A stretch of 64,000 nt of DNA from Candidatus Omnitrophota bacterium (lineage in GTDB: Bacteria > Omnitrophota > Gorgyraeia > Gygaellales > Profunditerraquicolaceae): the NCBI GenBank assembly GCA_030650425.1, contig JAUSED010000009.1, forward strand, positions 32,904 through 96,903, in the 5' to 3' direction. The translations under genes and the position numbers were made by a program. This document shows, in pieces, positions 18,731 through 62,860 of this stretch (positions are counted from its first letter, which is position 1; each line of letters begins with the position of its first letter). Under the pieces are notes generated by a model. It saw nothing but the letters and a program-made list of their open reading frames with translations. It ran no database searches and was not told the origin of the DNA.

Positions 18731-18823
18731 GGGGACACAAACTAGGGGACACTTTCCTTTTGAGGCTTTCATTAGAGCCCTGACGGAAAGTGTCCCCTAG
18801 TTGTGAGTTAGGAAAGTGTCCCC
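18731..18823. repeat. Cluster of GGGGACACTTTCC / GGAAAGTGTCCCC inverted-repeat elements (intergenic copy 1)
   Basis: A partial GGGGACAC sits at 18731. A full 13-bp inverted repeat pair at 18745-57 and 18785-97 has a 27-nt spacer. An extra right arm lies at 18811-23. The spacer tail AGAGCCCTGAC is shared with the copy at 28826. Confidence 0.8.
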
Positions 18824-18844
18824 TATCTTTGAATCCGATTGTGT

Positions 18845-19189: not shown

Positions 19190-20644
19190 ATGGAACTTTA
19201 TAAATTAACTGCTCACGAACTCCTCGAAAAATTAAAGAATAAAGAAATAACCGCGGAAGAAATCTCCTCAAGTTTAGCTAAGAGAATTGAGGATGTGGAT
19301 GTTGAGGTTAAAGCATATGTGAGGACTCCAGAAAAATGGGGACAAAAAAGGGGACAGTCCCCAGAAAAAGGGGACAGTCCCCTTTTTTTCGAAACAAAAG
19401 GCATTCCTGTATCTATAAAAGATAATATCTGTACCGATGGTTATAGCACTGAATGCTGTTCAAAAATTCTCGAAGGTTTTAAGCCGCCCTATAATGCGAC
19501 GGTAATCAATAAAATAAACGAGGCTGGACATAGTTTTCTGGGTTTAAAGTGCAATATGGATGAATTCGCTTTTGGTTCATCCACCGAAAATTCCTGTTTT
19601 GGCCCGACGCGTAATCCTTGGAATTTAGAATCTGTTCCCGGCGGTTCTTCCGGAGGCTCAGCAGCGGCAGTGGCCGGGGATGAAGCAATTTGGGCCCTGG
19701 GTTCGGATACTGGCGGCTCTATCCGTCAACCTGCTTCTTTCTGCGGAGTGGTGGGATTAAAGCCGACCTATGGAAGGGTTTCGCGTTATGGTTTAATCGC
19801 TTTTGCCTCCAGCCTTGATCAAATCGGGCCGCTGACTAAAGATGCGCGGGACTCGGCGCTGCTAATGAATATAATTTCCGGCTTTGACCCGCTTGATTCC
19901 ACCTCGATCAATATTCCTGTTCCTGATTATACTAAGGATTTGATTAACGACGCCAAAGGTTTAAAGATCGGTATTCCCAAAGAATATTTTGTAGAGGGCC
20001 TTGATCCTGAAGTTAAATCAATAGTTGAAGAAGCGATTGATAAATTAAAGGGCTTGGGAGCGCAATTTAAAGAAGTTTCCCTGCCGCACACAGAATACGC
20101 TGTCCCAGTTTATTACATCATCGCTACTGCCGAAGCCAGTTCTAATTTAGCCCGTTTTGATGGCGTGCAATATGGTTTAAGGGCTAAGACGCAAGGGTTG
20201 ATTGATATGTATAAGAAAACGCGCCAACTCGGATTTGGCGACGAGGCTAAGCGCAGGATAATCTTAGGGACATTCGCGCTTTCACACGGCTATTACGACG
20301 CTTATTACCTGAGGGCATTAAAGGTACGCACGCTGATTAAACAGGATTTTGACAATGTATTTAAGGATTTTGATTGTATTGTTACGCCTACATCGCCTAC
20401 CGCGGCCTTTAAAATCGGTGACAAAGTAGATGATCCGCTTAAAATGTATTTATCGGATATCTACACCATCTCGGTAAATTTAGCCGGGATTCCGGCGATC
20501 TCCATTCCGTGCGGATTTACCAAAAAAGGATTACCGGTAGGCTTACAAATTTTAAGCAGGCATTTTAATGAAAGCGCGCTTTTTCGCTTAGCCTATACCT
20601 ACGAACAGAATACTGAGTGGCATAAAATGAAACCAAAATTATGA
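19190..20644 (+). CDS. gatA: Asp/Glu-tRNA amidotransferase subunit A
   Basis: Amidase signature [18 protein letters not shown] and [10 protein letters not shown]. It contains an in-frame palindromic repeat at 19337-19382. Confidence 0.9.
19337..19382. repeat. Tandem GGGGACA(A/G)... and GGGGACAGTCCCC palindromic units inside the gatA coding frame
   Basis: TGGGGACAAAAAAGGGGACAGTCCCCAGAAAAAGGGGACAGTCCCC. It encodes [15 protein letters not shown] in a variable N-terminal linker of GatA. Confidence 0.75.
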
Positions 20645-28817: not shown

Positions 28818-28825
28818 CTACGCTA

Positions 28826-28877
28826 GGGGACACTTTCCTTTAGCAGCTTAGTAAGAGCCCTGACGGAAAGTGTCCCC
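28826..28877. repeat. GGGGACACTTTCC-26 nt-GGAAAGTGTCCCC inverted-repeat element (intergenic copy 2)
   Basis: It has the same 13-bp arms and the same AGAGCCCTGAC spacer tail as the copy at 18745-18797. It lies between acsC and the RACo gene. Confidence 0.8.
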
Positions 28878-28901
28878 TGATAGTGCCCTGTAGTGTGAGA
28901 T

Positions 28902-36064: not shown

Positions 36065-36119
36065 AAGATTAATTTACACTTCGGGAAGCTAAAAGTCAAA
36101 CATAATAAAAGATGCGCTC

Positions 36120-36166
36120 AGGGGACACTTTCCTACGCGCGTTTACTATCTGTTGGAAAGTGTCCC
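36120..36166. repeat. GGGGACACTTTCC-21 nt-GGAAAGTGTCCCC inverted-repeat element (intergenic copy 3)
   Basis: It has the same 13-bp arms as the copies at 18745 and 28826. It sits in the divergent region between the flippase and tilS. A further GATTTTCC...GGAAAATC inverted repeat follows. Confidence 0.8.
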
Positions 36167-36306
36167 CTGCTAGGGAAAAAACAGATTTTCCTCGCAGGGG
36201 AAAATCAAGCGGTGCTCACTCGAATCAAGCCAAGCCCCCCCCTAAGCCGTAATAAGCTTATAATGTAATCATTGAAAAGCAGTCTAGTTATGCTAATATA
36301 AAAAGT

Positions 36307-43290: not shown

Positions 43291-43578
43291 GGGTAGGTAC
43301 CCAAGTGGCCAAAGGGGGCAGACTGTGTAAACGCAGCGTCATGTCGAAAGGCGTGATGGAAAAGTAGGTGAATTCAGGGAACCCCTTAGTATATCTTTAC
43401 TGAGGGCAATCCTGAGCCAAGCCCGCCAATTTTATACGGCGGGAAGGTGCAGAGACTAAGCGCCTACCACCTAAAGCTTACAGCTATGGTGATGAGATAG
43501 TCCAAGCCTCAAGGTAACTTGAGGGCTCTTGAAATCTGCTGCACTTGTGCTTCAGAGGTTCGAATCCTCTCCTGCCCA
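43291..43578 (+). tRNA. tRNA-Tyr (anticodon GTA) interrupted in the anticodon loop by a group I intron
   Basis: Exon 1 at 43291-43326 gives acceptor GGGTAGG, a class-II 3-bp D-stem, and anticodon stem GCAGA plus CTGT. Exon 2 at 43532-43578 gives AAA, TCTGC, a long variable arm hairpin, T-arm AGAGG-TTCGAAT-CCTCT, and acceptor CCTGCCC. The spliced loop is CTGTAAA. Confidence 0.8.
43327..43531 (+). ncRNA. Group I intron (subgroup IC3-like, 205 nt) inside the tRNA-Tyr anticodon loop
   Basis: P1 pairs exon CTGT with internal guide sequence GCAG, giving a U·G wobble at the 5' splice site. It ends in G before exon 2. The core GGAAGGTGCAGAGACTAAGCGCCTACCACCTAAAGC...CTATGG...GATAGTCC closely resembles the R and S (P7) elements and 3' core of the Azoarcus tRNA-Ile intron. 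No ORF is present. Confidence 0.8.
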
Positions 43579-53898: not shown

Positions 53899-55467
53899 AT
53901 GTTGAAAGTAAAAATTTATGATACGACTTTACGCGACGGCGCTCAAGGCGAAGGCATCTCTTATTCGGTAATGGATAAGATCAGTATTGCTAAAGAATTG
54001 GATCTATTGGGTATTCAATACATTGAAGGCGGCTGGCCGGGATCAAACCCCAAGGATATGGAATTTTTCCTTAAGATGTCCAAGGTCAGCTTGCAGAATA
54101 GCGGCCTTTGCGCTTTTAGCATGACCCGCAGGCTGAATACTAAAGCCGAAGATGACCCTAACATAAAATCCCTGCTTAAATCCCAGGTTAAGATTATCAC
54201 GATTGTCGGAAAAACCTGGGACCTGCATGTGACAGACGTTTTAAAAACTAGCCCGGAAGAAAATCTGGAAATGGTCAAGGATACGATAAGTTTCTTGGTT
54301 TCCAAAGGCCTGACTGTATTCTATGACGCCGAACATTTCTTTGATGCATATAAAGCAAACCAAGATTACGCCTTAAAGACACTCATTGTCGCCCAAGAAG
54401 CAGGCGCGCAGGCAATTTGTCTCTGTGATACTAATGGAGGAGCGTTAACCTCTGAGATTTCCAGAATAGTGCCGGAAATTAAAAAAAGTGTAAAGATAAG
54501 TTTAGGCATTCACTGTCATAATGATGGGGGGCTGGCCGTGGCCAATTCTCTTGCCGCGGTTGAAGCCGGATGCGATTTAGTCCAAGGGACAATCAACGGT
54601 ATTGGAGAGCGCTGTGGAAACGCGGATTTAATCCCGATTATCGCCAATCTAAAACTGAAAATGAAAATTGATTGCATCCCCGATGATAAATTAAAAGAAT
54701 TAACTCATCTATCGCATTTTGTAAGCGAAATCAGCAATATGAAACAACGCCCTGATCAGCCTTATGTCGGCGATTCCAGCTTCGCGCACAAAGGCGGAAT
54801 GCATATTAACGCGATTATGAAAAATCCGAAAACCTATGAGCATATTGATCCCGAATTAGTGGGTAACCACAGGAGGATTTTAGTTTCGGAATTAGCGGGA
54901 AAGACCGGTGTATTAATCCGCGCCAAAGATTTGGATTTAGATTTGAAGAAAGATGACCCTAAGACTAAAAAAATCCTCCAGCTCGTGCAGAAACTTGAAC
55001 ACGAAGGATATCACTTTGAGGCGGCTGAGGCCTCTTTTGAGCTATTGATGAAACGGGCCCTGAATAAATATAAGAAATTTTTTGAGTTGGAGGGTTTTCG
55101 GGTGGTAATTGAAAAGAAATCAGATAAAGAGCTCACTACCGAAGCGATTATCAAAATCAAGGTTAAAGGCGTAAAAGAACATACTGCCGCGGATGGCGAC
55201 GGGCCGGTGAATGCCTTGGATAACGCCTTGCGTAAAGCCCTAAAAGATTTTTATCCTACGCTTTCTAAGATGCGCCTTTCAGATTTTAAAGTGCGGGTAT
55301 TGGATGAAAAAGCAGGTACAGCCGCCAAGGTGAGGGTGCTTATTCAATCGCAAGATGAGACAACAAGTTGGAACACTATCGGAGTATCAGAAAACATTAT
55401 TGAAGCCAGCTGGCAGGCCCTCACCGACAGTATTGAGTACAAACTGCTAAAAGATAACGTCAAATGA
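53899..55467 (+). CDS. 2-isopropylmalate synthase / (R)-citramalate synthase family protein (likely CimA)
   Basis: LRDGAQGEG...GGWPGSNPKD, HxH motif (HCHNDGG), and a LeuA-type C-terminal regulatory domain. Confidence 0.75.
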   Translation: MLKVKIYDTTLRDGAQGEGISYSVMDKISIAKELDLLGIQYIEGGWPGSNPKDMEFFLKMSKVSLQNSGLCAFSMTRRLNTKAEDDPNIKSLLKSQVKIITIVGKTWDLHVTDVLKTSPEENLEMVKDTISFLVSKGLTVFYDAEHFFDAYKANQDYALKTLIVAQEAGAQAICLCDTNGGALTSEISRIVPEIKKSVKISLGIHCHNDGGLAVANSLAAVEAGCDLVQGTINGIGERCGNADLIPIIANLKLKMKIDCIPDDKLKELTHLSHFVSEISNMKQRPDQPYVGDSSFAHKGGMHINAIMKNPKTYEHIDPELVGNHRRILVSELAGKTGVLIRAKDLDLDLKKDDPKTKKILQLVQKLEHEGYHFEAAEASFELLMKRALNKYKKFFELEGFRVVIEKKSDKELTTEAIIKIKVKGVKEHTAADGDGPVNALDNALRKALKDFYPTLSKMRLSDFKVRVLDEKAGTAAKVRVLIQSQDETTSWNTIGVSENIIEASWQALTDSIEYKLLKDNVK

Positions 55468-58241
55468 TCGATGAAATTCCCAAACAATACAATCCTAAAG
55501 AAACCGAAGATAAATGGTATAAAGCTTGGGAAGATAATAACCTATTTTCCGCCAAACCAAATCCTCAGAAGAAACCTTTCACTATAGTTATTCCTCCGCC
55601 TAATGTAACCGGAATTTTACATATGGGCCATGCTTTAAATAACACCATTCAGGACATCCTTATCCGCTACCAGCGGATGAAGGGTAAAGAAGCGCTTTGG
55701 ATGCCCGGGACTGATCACGCCGGGATCGCTACACAAAACGTCGTCGAGAAGGCTATTGCCAAAGAGGGATTAAAACGGCAGGATTTAGGCCGCCAAAATT
55801 TTATTGAACGCGTTTGGGTTTGGAAAGAGCAATACGGCTCGACGATCATCCGCCAACTTAAAAAATTAGGGGCTTCCTGCGATTGGCAACGCGAGCGTTT
55901 TACTATGGATGAGGAATACTCTAAGGCGGTAGTGGAAGTTTTTGTCAGGCTATATGAAAAAAATTTAATTTACCGGGGAAGCTATATTATTAACTGGTGC
56001 CCGCGCTGCCAAACCGCTTTATCCGATGAAGAAGCCCCGCACAAAGAACTGCAAGGGAATCTCTATTATTTAAAATACCCGCTTAAAGATAATCCGGATG
56101 AATACGTAATTGTGGCAACTACCCGGCCTGAGACGATGCTGGGTGACACCGCGGTTGCGGTTAACCCTAAAGACAAACGTTATAAGGAATTAATCGGTAA
56201 AACTTTAATCTTGCCATTGGTTAACCGGGAAATAAAAATTATTGCCGATACTCTGGTTGATTTGAAATTTGGCACCGGCGCGGTTAAAGTTACTCCTGCC
56301 CATGACCCTAATGATTACGCTATGGGAAAGAAGCATAAGCTTGAATTTATCAACGTTATGCGCGCTAATGGAACCTTAAATCAGAATGCCGGTGAATATA
56401 GCGGAATGGACAGGTTTGAGGCCAGAGAAGTAATTTTAGAGGATTTAAAAGAAAAAGGATTGTTGGAGAAAATCGAGCCACATAACTTATCTGCCGGGCA
56501 CTGCTATCGCTGTCACACGATCATCGAGCCTTATTTGTCCAAACAGTGGTTTGTGAAGATGAAACCTCTTGCCAAACCCGCATTGGAAGCGGTAAAAAAA
56601 GGTAAGATTAAATTTTATCCTACGCGTTGGGCCAAAGTTTATTTAAATTGGATGGAAAATATCCAAGATTGGTGCATCTCGCGCCAGATTTGGTGGGGGC
56701 ACCGTTTGCCTGTTTATTATTGCAGAGAATGTTCTGAACAAAACACCAAAAACCTAACACCTAACACCAAAGATGGCGTTATAGTTGCTAGAACTAAACC
56801 CGACAAATGTCCTTATTGCGGCTCTATTGATATTTACCAAGATGAAGACGTCCTGGATACTTGGTTTTCCTCCTGGCTCTGGCCATTTGCCACTTTTTAT
56901 TGGCCAGAAACTAATGGACAGTCCCCTCCCCTTCGGGGACAAGTTTCGGGGACAGTCCCTTCCGAAGATCTTAAATATTTTTATCCTACTTCAACCTTGG
57001 TAACTGCTCCGGAAATAATCTTTTTCTGGGTTGCCCGGATGATTATGGCCGGATTAGAATTCATGAAGGAGATACCCTTTAAAGACGTCTATATCCACGG
57101 GACAGTGCGCGACGTTGAAGGCAAAAAAATGTCCAAGTCTTTGGGTAATATCATTGACCCCCTGGAGATTATCAATGAATACGGCACCGATGCCCTGCGT
57201 TTCAGCCTAATCTCAATAACAGCGCAGGGGCAGGATGTATTTTTATCTAAAGAGAGGTTTGAGCAGGGAAGAAATTTTGCCAATAAAATCTGGAATGCTT
57301 CAAGATTTATTTTAATGAATTTAGAACAGGGACAGTCCCCTTCGGGGACAGTCCCTGTTCTAACTGACCTCTGCGTATTTTTTAAAAAAGAAGGCCTAAG
57401 TTTAGTCAATCGCTGGATATTAAGCAGATTTTATTCTACGCTTAGAGAAGTGGAGAAAAATCTGGAAAATTATCAGTTTAATGAAGCAGCAAATACCCTC
57501 TATGGGTTCTTCTGGCATGAATTCTGCGATTGGTACCTTGAGATAATCAAGCCGGATATTAAGAGCGTTCATAATCAGGTAGTGATGTATAAGATACTTG
57601 AGAAATTCCTAAGAGTTTTACATCCTTTTATGCCTTTTATCAGCGAAGAGATCTGGCAAAGACTTATCGAACAGGGACAGTCCCCTTCGGGGACTGTCCC
57701 TGTCAAGACTAGTATAATGATACAACTCTGGCCGCATATCCAAGAGAATATTATCGACCATAAAGCTGAAAAAACAATGCAAGAAGCTCTTGAGATTATT
57801 ACGAGCATCAGGAATATGCGCCTGGAATTAGATATCCCTCCTCAAGCCCAAAACATAGAAGTCAAGATTTCAACATCAAGTAAGAGTAAAAAGGCGGCCT
57901 TGGAGGCGCTTTCCGGCCAAATCAAGAACTTATCCAGGTTAAATAAACTGGAGATTCTTGACGAATACAGGAGAGGCTTGGGAGAATTTACCAGCGTGCT
58001 AAAGGATGCGCATATTACTATTTTTTTATCAGGGGTGATCGATATAGAAAAACATAAGGAAAAAATCAACCAAAAGATTCAGAGGACTGAGAGTGAGATT
58101 AATTTAAAAGAAAAGATGCTCTCGGATAAGAATTTCTTACAGCGGGCGCCTTCGGAGATCGTGGAAATCGAGAGGGAGAAATTAAAGAACCTAAAGGATG
58201 AAGCGCAAAAACTAAAAGGAGTAAAAGATGGCCTTAGGTAA
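55464..58241 (+). CDS. valS: Valyl-tRNA synthetase
   Basis: HMGH and KMSKS motifs, and a C-terminal coiled coil. It carries three in-frame palindromic element insertions (see the repeat features). Confidence 0.95.
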   Translation: MIDEIPKQYNPKETEDKWYKAWEDNNLFSAKPNPQKKPFTIVIPPPNVTGILHMGHALNNTIQDILIRYQRMKGKEALWMPGTDHAGIATQNVVEKAIAKEGLKRQDLGRQNFIERVWVWKEQYGSTIIRQLKKLGASCDWQRERFTMDEEYSKAVVEVFVRLYEKNLIYRGSYIINWCPRCQTALSDEEAPHKELQGNLYYLKYPLKDNPDEYVIVATTRPETMLGDTAVAVNPKDKRYKELIGKTLILPLVNREIKIIADTLVDLKFGTGAVKVTPAHDPNDYAMGKKHKLEFINVMRANGTLNQNAGEYSGMDRFEAREVILEDLKEKGLLEKIEPHNLSAGHCYRCHTIIEPYLSKQWFVKMKPLAKPALEAVKKGKIKFYPTRWAKVYLNWMENIQDWCISRQIWWGHRLPVYYCRECSEQNTKNLTPNTKDGVIVARTKPDKCPYCGSIDIYQDEDVLDTWFSSWLWPFATFYWPETNGQSPPLRGQVSGTVPSEDLKYFYPTSTLVTAPEIIFFWVARMIMAGLEFMKEIPFKDVYIHGTVRDVEGKKMSKSLGNIIDPLEIINEYGTDALRFSLISITAQGQDVFLSKERFEQGRNFANKIWNASRFILMNLEQGQSPSGTVPVLTDLCVFFKKEGLSLVNRWILSRFYSTLREVEKNLENYQFNEAANTLYGFFWHEFCDWYLEIIKPDIKSVHNQVVMYKILEKFLRVLHPFMPFISEEIWQRLIEQGQSPSGTVPVKTSIMIQLWPHIQENIIDHKAEKTMQEALEIITSIRNMRLELDIPPQAQNIEVKISTSSKSKKAALEALSGQIKNLSRLNKLEILDEYRRGLGEFTSVLKDAHITIFLSGVIDIEKHKEKINQKIQRTESEINLKEKMLSDKNFLQRAPSEIVEIEREKLKNLKDEAQKLKGVKDGLR
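56916..56967. repeat. Compound GGGGACAGTCCC palindromic element inserted in-frame in valS (copy 1)
   Basis: GGACAGTCCCCTCCCCTTCGGGGACAAGTTTCGGGGACAGTCCCTTCCGAAG. It encodes GQSPPLRGQVSGTVPS, a 16-aa insertion relative to the conserved ValS WPE...FHPTS spacing. Confidence 0.8.
57324..57360. repeat. 37-bp palindromic element inserted in-frame in valS (copy 2)
   Basis: GAACAGGGACAGTCCCC-TTC-GGGGACAGTCCCTGTTC, 17-bp arms. It encodes EQGQSPSGTVPV. Confidence 0.85.
57670..57702. repeat. 33-bp perfect palindromic element inserted in-frame in valS (copy 3)
   Basis: ACAGGGACAGTCCCC-TTC-GGGGACTGTCCCTGT. It encodes EQGQSPSGTVPV inside the conserved anticodon-binding IWQR...region. Confidence 0.85.
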
Positions 58242-62800: not shown

Positions 62801-62820
62801 TTATAGGGACGGTTCGAAAA

Positions 62821-62852
62821 TTCGTAGCGGACATTTAAATGTCCGCTACGAA
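62821..62852 (+). other. 13-bp inverted-repeat stem-loop in the groES-groEL intergenic region
   Basis: TTCGTAGCGGACA-TTTAAA-TGTCCGCTACGAA. Confidence 0.5.
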
Positions 62853-62860
62853 TTGAATAG

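Follow-up and report, generated by a model that had tools for sequence, protein, structure and literature searches.

Hairpin repeats inserted in frame in the valyl-tRNA synthetase gene of an Omnitrophota bacterium: a probable miniature REPIN-type family

Palindromic inserts in valS and a copy in gatA

In this study we analysed a stretch of 64,000 nucleotides of a Candidatus Omnitrophota bacterium (contig JAUSED010000009.1, positions 32,904 to 96,903 of the forward strand), referred to as the window, and in particular the palindromic repeats within its valyl-tRNA synthetase gene. This gene, valS (55464-58241, forward strand), is an open reading frame (ORF) for a valine-tRNA ligase of 925 amino acids (ValS or ValRS) with the Pfam domains tRNA-synt_1, Anticodon_1 and Val_tRNA-synt_C. 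The product matches the ValRS of Thermus thermophilus (1GAX) with E = 2e-226 and is 100% identical to a 924-aa NCBI protein from a Candidatus Omnitrophota metagenome-assembled genome (MAG). The gene hosts three palindromic inserts and one heptamer array. The inserts were confirmed as three in-frame copies of a double palindrome, GGGGACWGTCCCC, called the doublet in the following.

Site A (56916-56960, forward strand) reads GGACAGTCCCC-TCCCCTTCGGGGACAAGTTTC-GGGGACAGTCCCT and is a degenerate composite. Two units, GGACAGTCCCC and GGGGACAGTCCC, surround a loop of 21 nt with a nested CCCCTTCGGGGAC fragment; the encoded peptide is GQSPPLRGQVSGTVP and the fold is weak (z = -1.4). Site B, also on the forward strand, has the form GAACAGGGACAGTCCCC-TTC-GGGGACAGTCCCTGTTC (inverted repeat I4). 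Its core spans 57324-57360 and the palindrome extends to 57321-57363, with an A.A mismatch at the centre and pairing that runs into the host codons (TTAGAACAG...CTGTTCTAA). The peptide is QGQSPSGTVPV and the predicted folding energy -33.6 kcal/mol (z = -7.3). Site C (57669-57705, forward strand; inverted repeat I12) reads GAACAGGGACAGTCCCC-TTC-GGGGACTGTCCCTGTCA, contains a perfect palindrome at 57671-57703 with a stem of 15 bp, encodes EQGQSPSGTVPV and folds with -34.3 kcal/mol (z = -6.7). For sites B and C z is about -7 whichever strand is folded, and in a test on doublets the inverted repeats I4, I5 and I12 gave folds of -31 to -35 kcal/mol with z values of -6 to -7.

Sites B and C agree in 34 of 37 nt, including the loop and flanks outside the core, and are therefore regarded as copies of one source sequence. 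An initial annotation of this DNA had described near-identical palindromes at all three sites, each a multiple of 3 nt long. The palindromes measure 37 or 43 nt (B) and 33 nt (C), so their lengths are not all multiples of three; the reading frame is kept by the net insertions, which amount to 16 aa (A) and 11 aa (C) relative to 1GAX, and to 7 aa (B) and 10 aa (C) when a close relative (locus L120, see below) is the reference. The peptides given in that annotation were reproduced by translation. They had been assumed to form tolerated surface loops. In a predicted AlphaFold model of ValS (mean predicted local distance difference test score, pLDDT, of 60.6; catalytic half poor, C-terminal half good) the sites B (aa 621-632) and C (aa 736-747) appear as coils with pLDDT below 50 between confident helices, so both are predicted to be flexible loops; the region around site A was modelled too poorly for judging its exposure.

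A fourth copy, detected as an inverted repeat, is located at 19344-19388 (forward strand) inside gatA (19190-20644) and reads AAAAAAGGGGACAGTCCCC-AGAAAAA-GGGGACAGTCCCCTTTTTT. It encodes 14 residues in a variable linker that immediately precedes the GIPxxIKDNI motif (alignment to the GatA structures 3H0L and 2DF4) and folds with -31.3 kcal/mol (z = -5.9). This copy lies some 50 codons from the beginning of an essential ORF and, being arranged as A6-stem-loop-stem-T7, is shaped like a bidirectional intrinsic terminator. The motif thus also occurs outside valS. In total, the window holds 8 units at 4 loci, and both host ORFs are intact. The 11-mer GGGACAGTCCC, with at most one mismatch, has 15 strand matches in the window compared with 0.36 expected, a number reached by none of 100 shuffles.

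Comparison with other ValS sequences

We aligned the ValS proteins of 120 Omnitrophota and inferred a neighbour-joining tree from the alignment with the insert columns removed (loci of other genomes are designated by L numbers, proteins by P numbers). Against 1GAX there is a clean gap of 16 aa at site A and of 11 aa at site C. At A, B and C, peptides of the element type (GQSPxGTVP or GLSPKGTVP) are dispersed over the whole tree, and close sisters differ. The nearest relatives, L119 and L120, are syntenic with the window. In L120 (82-87% identical, 87% at the amino acid level outside the elements) all three sites are empty; in L119, B and C are filled and A is empty. A filled site C was also found in L245. 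Relatives carry at site A either a simple form of 27-33 nt or other repeats. Both orientations of the element (GQSPxGTVP and GLSPKGTVP) occur there, as anticipated by the initial annotation for a palindrome that yields a similar peptide either way. Nested copies were seen in P0084 and P0033.

The ValRS of T. thermophilus and the closest relatives lack the inserts, whose occurrence on the ValS tree is patchy. The data therefore support that they are inserted hairpin repeats and no ancestral feature of ValS, in agreement with what had been proposed from the sequence. An assembly artefact was ruled out, because the same inserts are present in independent assemblies from NCBI, JGI and ENA, and the motif is found in isolate genomes. 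No direct repeats were detected at the element junctions when the window sites and the relatives were compared.

valS as a hot spot for hairpin families

The insert positions had been described initially as gap-free and conserved in other ValS sequences. In the Omnitrophota alignment they are instead indel hot spots. Within 32 Omnitrophota valS genes we counted about eight such hot spots, and the inserts are mostly DNA hairpins or GTC repeats with a period of 7 nt. Each genome uses its own repeat family at several valS sites, exemplified by L144, with (CAGTCCA)n...(TGTCGAC)n at three sites. The heptamer array of the window, (AACACCT) x 3.9 at 56742-56768 on the forward strand, was detected by Tandem Repeats Finder (TRF) and encodes QNTKNLTPNT. 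It corresponds to an 8-aa gap against 1GAX and falls in a hot spot at alignment columns 490-515, where relatives bear 7-nt-periodic hairpin inserts.

Copies of the GGGAC family are concentrated in this gene. In the 16-23-kb loci of relatives, valS holds 4/4 copies in L242, 4/4 in L243, 4/5 in L246, 2/2 in L245 and 3/3 in L119, and three of the four copies of the window lie in valS. In a census of strict hairpins, the density per 10 kb amounted to 7.5 for intergenic DNA, 0.79 for valS and 0.22 for the remaining coding sequences, hence a 3.6-fold density in valS compared with the latter, which is partly due to ascertainment because some loci were picked for their ValS inserts. valS is a recurrent hot spot of many hairpin families.

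Distribution of the doublet

For the distribution beyond Omnitrophota, species-representative genomes were scanned for GGGACWGTCCC-N(1-12)-GGGACWGTCCC. The doublet was found in at least 118 loci from more than 15 phyla, among them Patescibacteria, Planctomycetota and Actinomycetota, and several genomes gave 2-6 loci among the matches listed. The initial annotation had noted that such a family may be undescribed for this lineage. In the listed matches the GGGGACWGTCCCC doublet is a multi-copy repeat of more than 15 phyla and not private to Omnitrophota. About 62 of 139 listed occurrences are located in long ORFs. Ten of the ORFs carrying a copy were checked with Pfam, which recognised the family of eight. 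The in-frame hosts include a GT4 glycosyltransferase, a MiaB-like enzyme, methionyl-tRNA synthetase, UvrC, a CobQ fusion, a class-I aminoacyl-tRNA synthetase (two copies), Mfd and a ROK kinase. The core is free of stop codons in all six frames, which read GDSP, GTVP, GQSP, GDCP, GTVP and GLSP.

Of 147 doublets, 104 have identical bases at their two centres and 43 have different ones. The spacers have a length of 1-12 nt, and the loops of the A-strand are mostly YKC. This common polarity is an argument for a family of related elements that has a strand-specific aspect. A literature search with the motif string returned only eukaryotic primers and oligonucleotides, and nothing relevant was found on palindromic elements in Omnitrophota.

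Control doublets were counted in viral contigs as well. The motif belongs to a broader class of GGG-NN-W-NN-CCC doublets, and uniqueness of the core was ruled out, since the control GGGTCWGACCC is at least as frequent there. GGGTCWGACCC is present in multiple copies in many viral contigs (L216-L241), with at least six loci in the giant-virus MAG IMGVR_UViG_GVMAG-S-404869-41_000001. These doublets appear to be a separate, undescribed hairpin-repeat family.

Association with RAYT transposases

Repetitive extragenic palindromic (REP) sequences are reportedly mobilised by REP-associated tyrosine transposases (RAYTs), as Nunvar is said to have described in 2010. We searched for RAYTs in the window and in all retrieved loci, using the E. 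coli RayT as query and then a hidden Markov model built from the matches. RAYT-like ORFs were found in five loci that had been retrieved by the DNA motif alone (L028, L031, L092, L117 and L202). The control, 1.29 Mb of valS-centred loci, contained one RAYT-like ORF with no motif nearby. NCBIfam model NF047646 (REP-associated tyrosine transposase, cutoff 80 bits) gave 83.8 and 79.7 bits, and Pfam Y1_Tnp (PF01797) was above cutoff for all four RAYT-like ORFs scanned. GGGGACTGTCCCC units bracket the RAYT gene from either side in L092 (Planctomycetota) and L202 (an IMG/VR contig), with 12 core units in 8 kb and 21 in 4 kb, respectively. This is the defining arrangement of a REPtron. Next to the RAYT gene of L092 (3930-3990), the GGGGACTGTCCCC units pass gradually into short runs in tandem (CTGTCCCCAAAA x 3-4), which hints at a link of the palindromic doublets to tandem repeats of the short tandemly repeated repetitive (STRR) type.

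All-versus-all clustering of the ORFs from 118 motif loci showed that ABC ATPases, histidine kinases and PBP2 recur. A cluster of three members was later recognised as RAYT, and in most motif loci this clustering revealed no linked mobility gene.

Omnitrophota themselves encode RAYT homologues. In L250 and L251 (9940-10760) a RAYT gene is located downstream of a ComM/Mg-chelatase-like gene, at a syntenic position common to both genomes, and is flanked by inverted sister units AAATAGGGACGTCACCYATTT (a GGGGAC-GTC REP). These RAYTs are consistent with domesticated, vertically inherited genes. The window itself contains a sister hairpin family, GGGGACACTTTCC...GGAAAGTGTCCCC, at 18740-18825, 28825-28878 and 36119-36169 (no strand assigned). 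All three copies are intergenic, their loops measure 15-27 nt, and GGGGACA is common to this family and that of valS. The window core GGGGACAG as well as GGGGACAC of the sister family fit the consensus GGGGWSAS, which is shared by the repeats flanking the RAYT-like TIRYT genes (PMC3733652).

Further repeats and features in the window

The gene of the RNase P RNA (249-730) has a length of 482 nt compared with 367 nt of the model. An insertion of 89 nt (approx. 330-419) replaces 13 nt of the model and holds a perfect 46-nt palindrome at 353-398 (ATTATCCCGCAAGGTTAGCTTTT / AAAAGCTAACCTTGCGGGAT). It looks like the insertion of a hairpin element, that is, a counterpart of the valS inserts in an RNA gene.

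At approx. 43292-43578, flanked by tRNA-Thr and tRNA-Gly, we observed a tRNA-Tyr(GUA)-like gene which was missed by ARAGORN. It appears to be split at the anticodon loop by a group I intron (RF00028, 43333-43524). The 5' half ends with ...GGCAGACTGT and the 3' half reads AAATCTGC...GGTTCGAATCC...CCCA. A perfect intergenic palindrome of 36 nt, AATTCGTAGCGGACATTTAAATGTCCGCTACGAATT, is located at 62819-62854. With its ends GTAG...CTAC it has the shape of a canonical GTAG-tagged REP, and it is present in a single copy in the window.

Interpretation and alternative explanations

We consider the valS palindromes and the gatA copy to be miniature selfish hairpins of the type of REPINs (REP doublets forming hairpins), associated with RAYTs and tolerated in frame in protein loops, and assign this reading a probability of roughly 0.7. 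The assignment to the REP/REPIN type is based on the link to RAYT transposases. The element would consist of two self-palindromic REP-like units of 12-13 nt (GGGGAC-W-GTCCCC), a spacer of 3-7 nt and a few complementary outer bases, and could fold as one long hairpin or as two small ones. By analogy to REPs and REPINs, the doublets would be non-autonomous, and a single-copy RAYT (Y1/HUH, related to IS200/IS605) encoded and active elsewhere in the genome would copy hairpins of single-stranded DNA. As the core is free of stop codons and encodes turns rich in Gly, Pro, Ser and Thr (GQSP, GTVP, GDSP, GLSP, GDCP), in-frame copies in flexible surface loops of a large modular protein would be translated and tolerated, and copies landing elsewhere would be purged by purifying selection. 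ValRS may supply several such loops, which Omnitrophota would fill with whichever hairpin family is active in the respective genome. Once settled, the palindromes would keep their symmetry, and be lengthened into host codons, through hairpin-templated correction, and old copies probably attract new ones.

Several observations weigh against this reading. There is no RAYT gene within the 64-kb window, and of the five loci where a RAYT-like ORF was found, three have the motif at a distance of 1-4 kb and not flanking the gene. The units of 13 nt and doublets of 27-37 nt are smaller than REPs (about 20-40 nt) and REPINs (70-110 nt), and the unit ends carry neither the GTAG tag of canonical REPs nor a CGTC tag. 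REPs are mainly extragenic, whereas all four window copies of the valS/gatA family are intragenic; intragenic REPs are a documented minority (PMC3733652). In viral contigs the real doublet was found in 13 loci, the control GGGCAWTGCCC in 2 and the composition-matched control GGGTCWGACCC in 26, so the spread across phyla may partly reflect a broad class of palindromes and not one family. In the closest pair of a filled and an empty site (L247 and L248), which is already saturated at synonymous sites, no target-site duplication or excision footprint was discernible. Finally, the site-B element is about 97% identical, with identical junctions, in the window genome, L242, L243 and L244.

This last point leads to the first alternative, in which the hairpins serve a function in cis and are under selection in valS and gatA, for example for ribosome pausing during folding, for mRNA stability or for transcription attenuation. 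The 4-fold degenerate sites of valS are saturated between the compared genomes (24-53% identity), and nevertheless all nine 4-fold codon positions within the site-B element are conserved across genomes that agree in 24-51% of their valS 4-fold sites. Such near-identity is not simply predicted by random transposition and needs re-targeting, gene conversion or selection. Changes in one arm are compensated in the other, so that pairing is preserved (GGAAC...GTTCC at site B of L119; GGGTC...GACCC at site A of L242 and L243). A role in cis would also suit the stable folds of -31 to -35 kcal/mol, the resemblance of the gatA copy to an intrinsic terminator, the near confinement of the relatives' GGGAC-family copies to valS and the higher hairpin density in this gene, the latter derived from loci that were partly picked for ValS inserts. 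However, close relatives do without any insert, and the same sites hold both orientations as well as wholly different repeat families. Copies decay in situ, as seen with an eroded remnant in L247 and an intact copy in L248, and the same element is present in unrelated genes, in intergenic DNA of many phyla and beside RAYT genes. The symmetry of the arms can be maintained by templated correction without selection. At site B of the window, CTA (Leu) stands where relatives have AAA or AAG (Lys) and pairs with an upstream TAG, which lengthens the stem; this growth into host codons is best explained by hairpin-templated correction. Taken together, a selected cis-element seems unlikely to us as the explanation of the family. 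Renewal by re-insertion into old copies, gene conversion or selection on the hairpin may each be at work.

The same growth of the site-B palindrome, together with the compensated arm changes, can be read in favour of a second alternative, in which host-intrinsic mutation creates the repeats by snap-back or template-switch synthesis and by gene conversion between GC-rich quasi-palindromes, with no dedicated transposase. The recurrent GGG-NN-W-NN-CCC cores would then reflect the limited sequence space of stable mini-hairpins. This fits the counts in viral contigs, where GGGTCWGACCC equals or exceeds the real doublet and GGGCAWTGCCC is rare, and the fact that ORF clustering revealed no linked mobility gene in most loci. 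Moreover, Nostoc and Xanthomonas abound in related heptamer or hairpin repeats whose origin is unknown (PMC4692102), and REPs of the CGTC type were reported without a dedicated transposase (PMC3733652). On the other hand, the unit shared in 34 of 37 nt by two valS sites and the core in gatA require copy-paste from a shared source, the polarity (A.A centre, YKC loop) conserved across phyla argues for a related family, and it is exactly the GGGGACTGTCCCC motif that brackets the RAYT genes in L092 and L202. We judge this origin slightly less probable than a selected cis-element.

A third alternative takes the GQSPxGTVP loops for an ancestral or adaptive ValRS feature under selection at the protein level, with a DNA palindrome that is only incidental. 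It could account for the similar peptides that many Omnitrophota ValS have at these three positions and for a reading phase that is always GQSP/GLSP-x-GTVP, but is very improbable and largely refuted already by the absence of the peptides from the T. thermophilus ValRS and the nearest relatives and by invariant third-codon positions amid saturated synonymous sites, which point to a constraint on DNA and not on protein. The same DNA in other genes, other frames and non-coding DNA also speaks against it. Mimicry of the anticodon arm of tRNA-Val for autoregulation, conceivable from the GAC triplet, was rejected as well, with the triplet lying inside the stem and the element occurring in unrelated genes.

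Going further than REPIN-type hairpins tolerated in protein loops, the GGGGACWGTCCCC doublet could represent a cross-phylum REPIN lineage that is shaped for intragenic life, with homing to the same protein loops or renewal there. This extension is tentative and in our estimation rather doubtful. If true, it would explain the near-identical DNA at orthologous valS sites and the 3-4 valS copies per genome; the renewal would then proceed via self-targeting into old copies, or the hairpins would have gained a role in valS expression or folding. Conservation beyond the neutral expectation at orthologous sites is a handle on REPIN re-targeting versus function. Measuring 27-37 nt and marked by an A.A mismatch, by a YKC loop and by the absence of stop codons from every frame of its core, the doublet is a very small candidate substrate of RAYTs. 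Mobile hairpins can drive length variation of aminoacyl-tRNA synthetases in uncultured lineages. Such inserts inflate protein length, upset alignments and phylogenomic markers, and may pass for lineage-specific domains.

Comparison with known repeat systems

REPINs are known for compensatory changes, tandem arrays, nesting, decayed singlets and clusters close to RAYT genes (PMC3116915, Bertels & Rainey 2011). The family of the window and its relatives show compensatory changes, tandem arrays, nesting and decay in miniature. Like a REPIN, the doublet consists of two self-palindromic units with a short spacer that can form one long hairpin or a 'clover', it is dispersed and multi-copy, and in two other genomes, L092 and L202, the same units bracket a RAYT gene. 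In contrast to REPINs, it clusters strongly in a single gene, valS, and such elements have not been reported from its host phylum, Omnitrophota. Miniature inverted-repeat transposable elements (in a size range of 70-300 bp, with terminal inverted repeats and target-site duplications) were rejected as a class, since the doublet is too small and entirely palindromic and its junctions have no direct repeats.

The initial annotation had compared the inserts with Rickettsia palindromic elements (RPEs). According to the summaries of Ogata 2000 and 2002 in PMC10969869 and PMC3733652, these have a length of about 100-150 bp and are specific for Rickettsia; their short types were found by Di Nocera to end in CGTC (PMC3733652). 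The likeness in behaviour holds, as both are selfish palindromes located in frame in housekeeping genes, with an extra peptide compatible with the fold of the protein. Membership in RPE-1 to RPE-10 does not, because size (27-45 nt), host and sequence all mismatch. The core of the doublet is spread across phyla and not restricted to one genus, and it is linked to RAYTs, whereas no transposase is known to be linked to RPEs.

Short tandem repeats are a further point of reference. STRR heptamers GGGGACT/AGTCCCC are abundant in Nostoc, and Xanthomonas has GGGAATC repeats with convergent inverted pairs (PMC4692102). The half-unit AGTCCCC/GGGGACT of the doublet equals the tandem heptamer of Nostoc, and valS inserts of relatives are often GTC repeats with a period of 7 nt. 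The STRRs form long, mostly intergenic tandem arrays, whereas the window contains inverted doublets only; as TRF detected no AGTCCCC tandem arrays in the window, identity with STRRs was rejected and a resemblance remains. An STRR insertion in RNase P RNA is known from cyanobacteria, comparable to the hairpin in the RNase P RNA gene of the window.

Mitochondria likewise have short hairpins rich in GC, known as GC-cluster, double-hairpin and byp elements, which spread in an AT-rich genome and can be located in coding regions. Those are organellar, and some are skipped by translational bypassing. The inserts of the window are in frame and stop-free, so nothing suggests bypassing here. The RHEs of sponges have been named as a comparison for the mitochondrial hairpin elements (PMC2800124).

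In-frame intragenic REP dimers were described by Di Nocera in 2013, most frequently in Opitutus terrae and R. conorii, sometimes with two per ORF and with tRNA-synthetase genes included (PMC3733652). REP insertions in such genes are therefore already known. The doublet is no new kind of element but most likely a fresh example of a known one. Intragenic selfish palindromes, so far represented by the RPEs of Rickettsia and the intragenic REPs of Opitutus and Xanthomonas, now reach Omnitrophota and, by way of the shared core, many other phyla.

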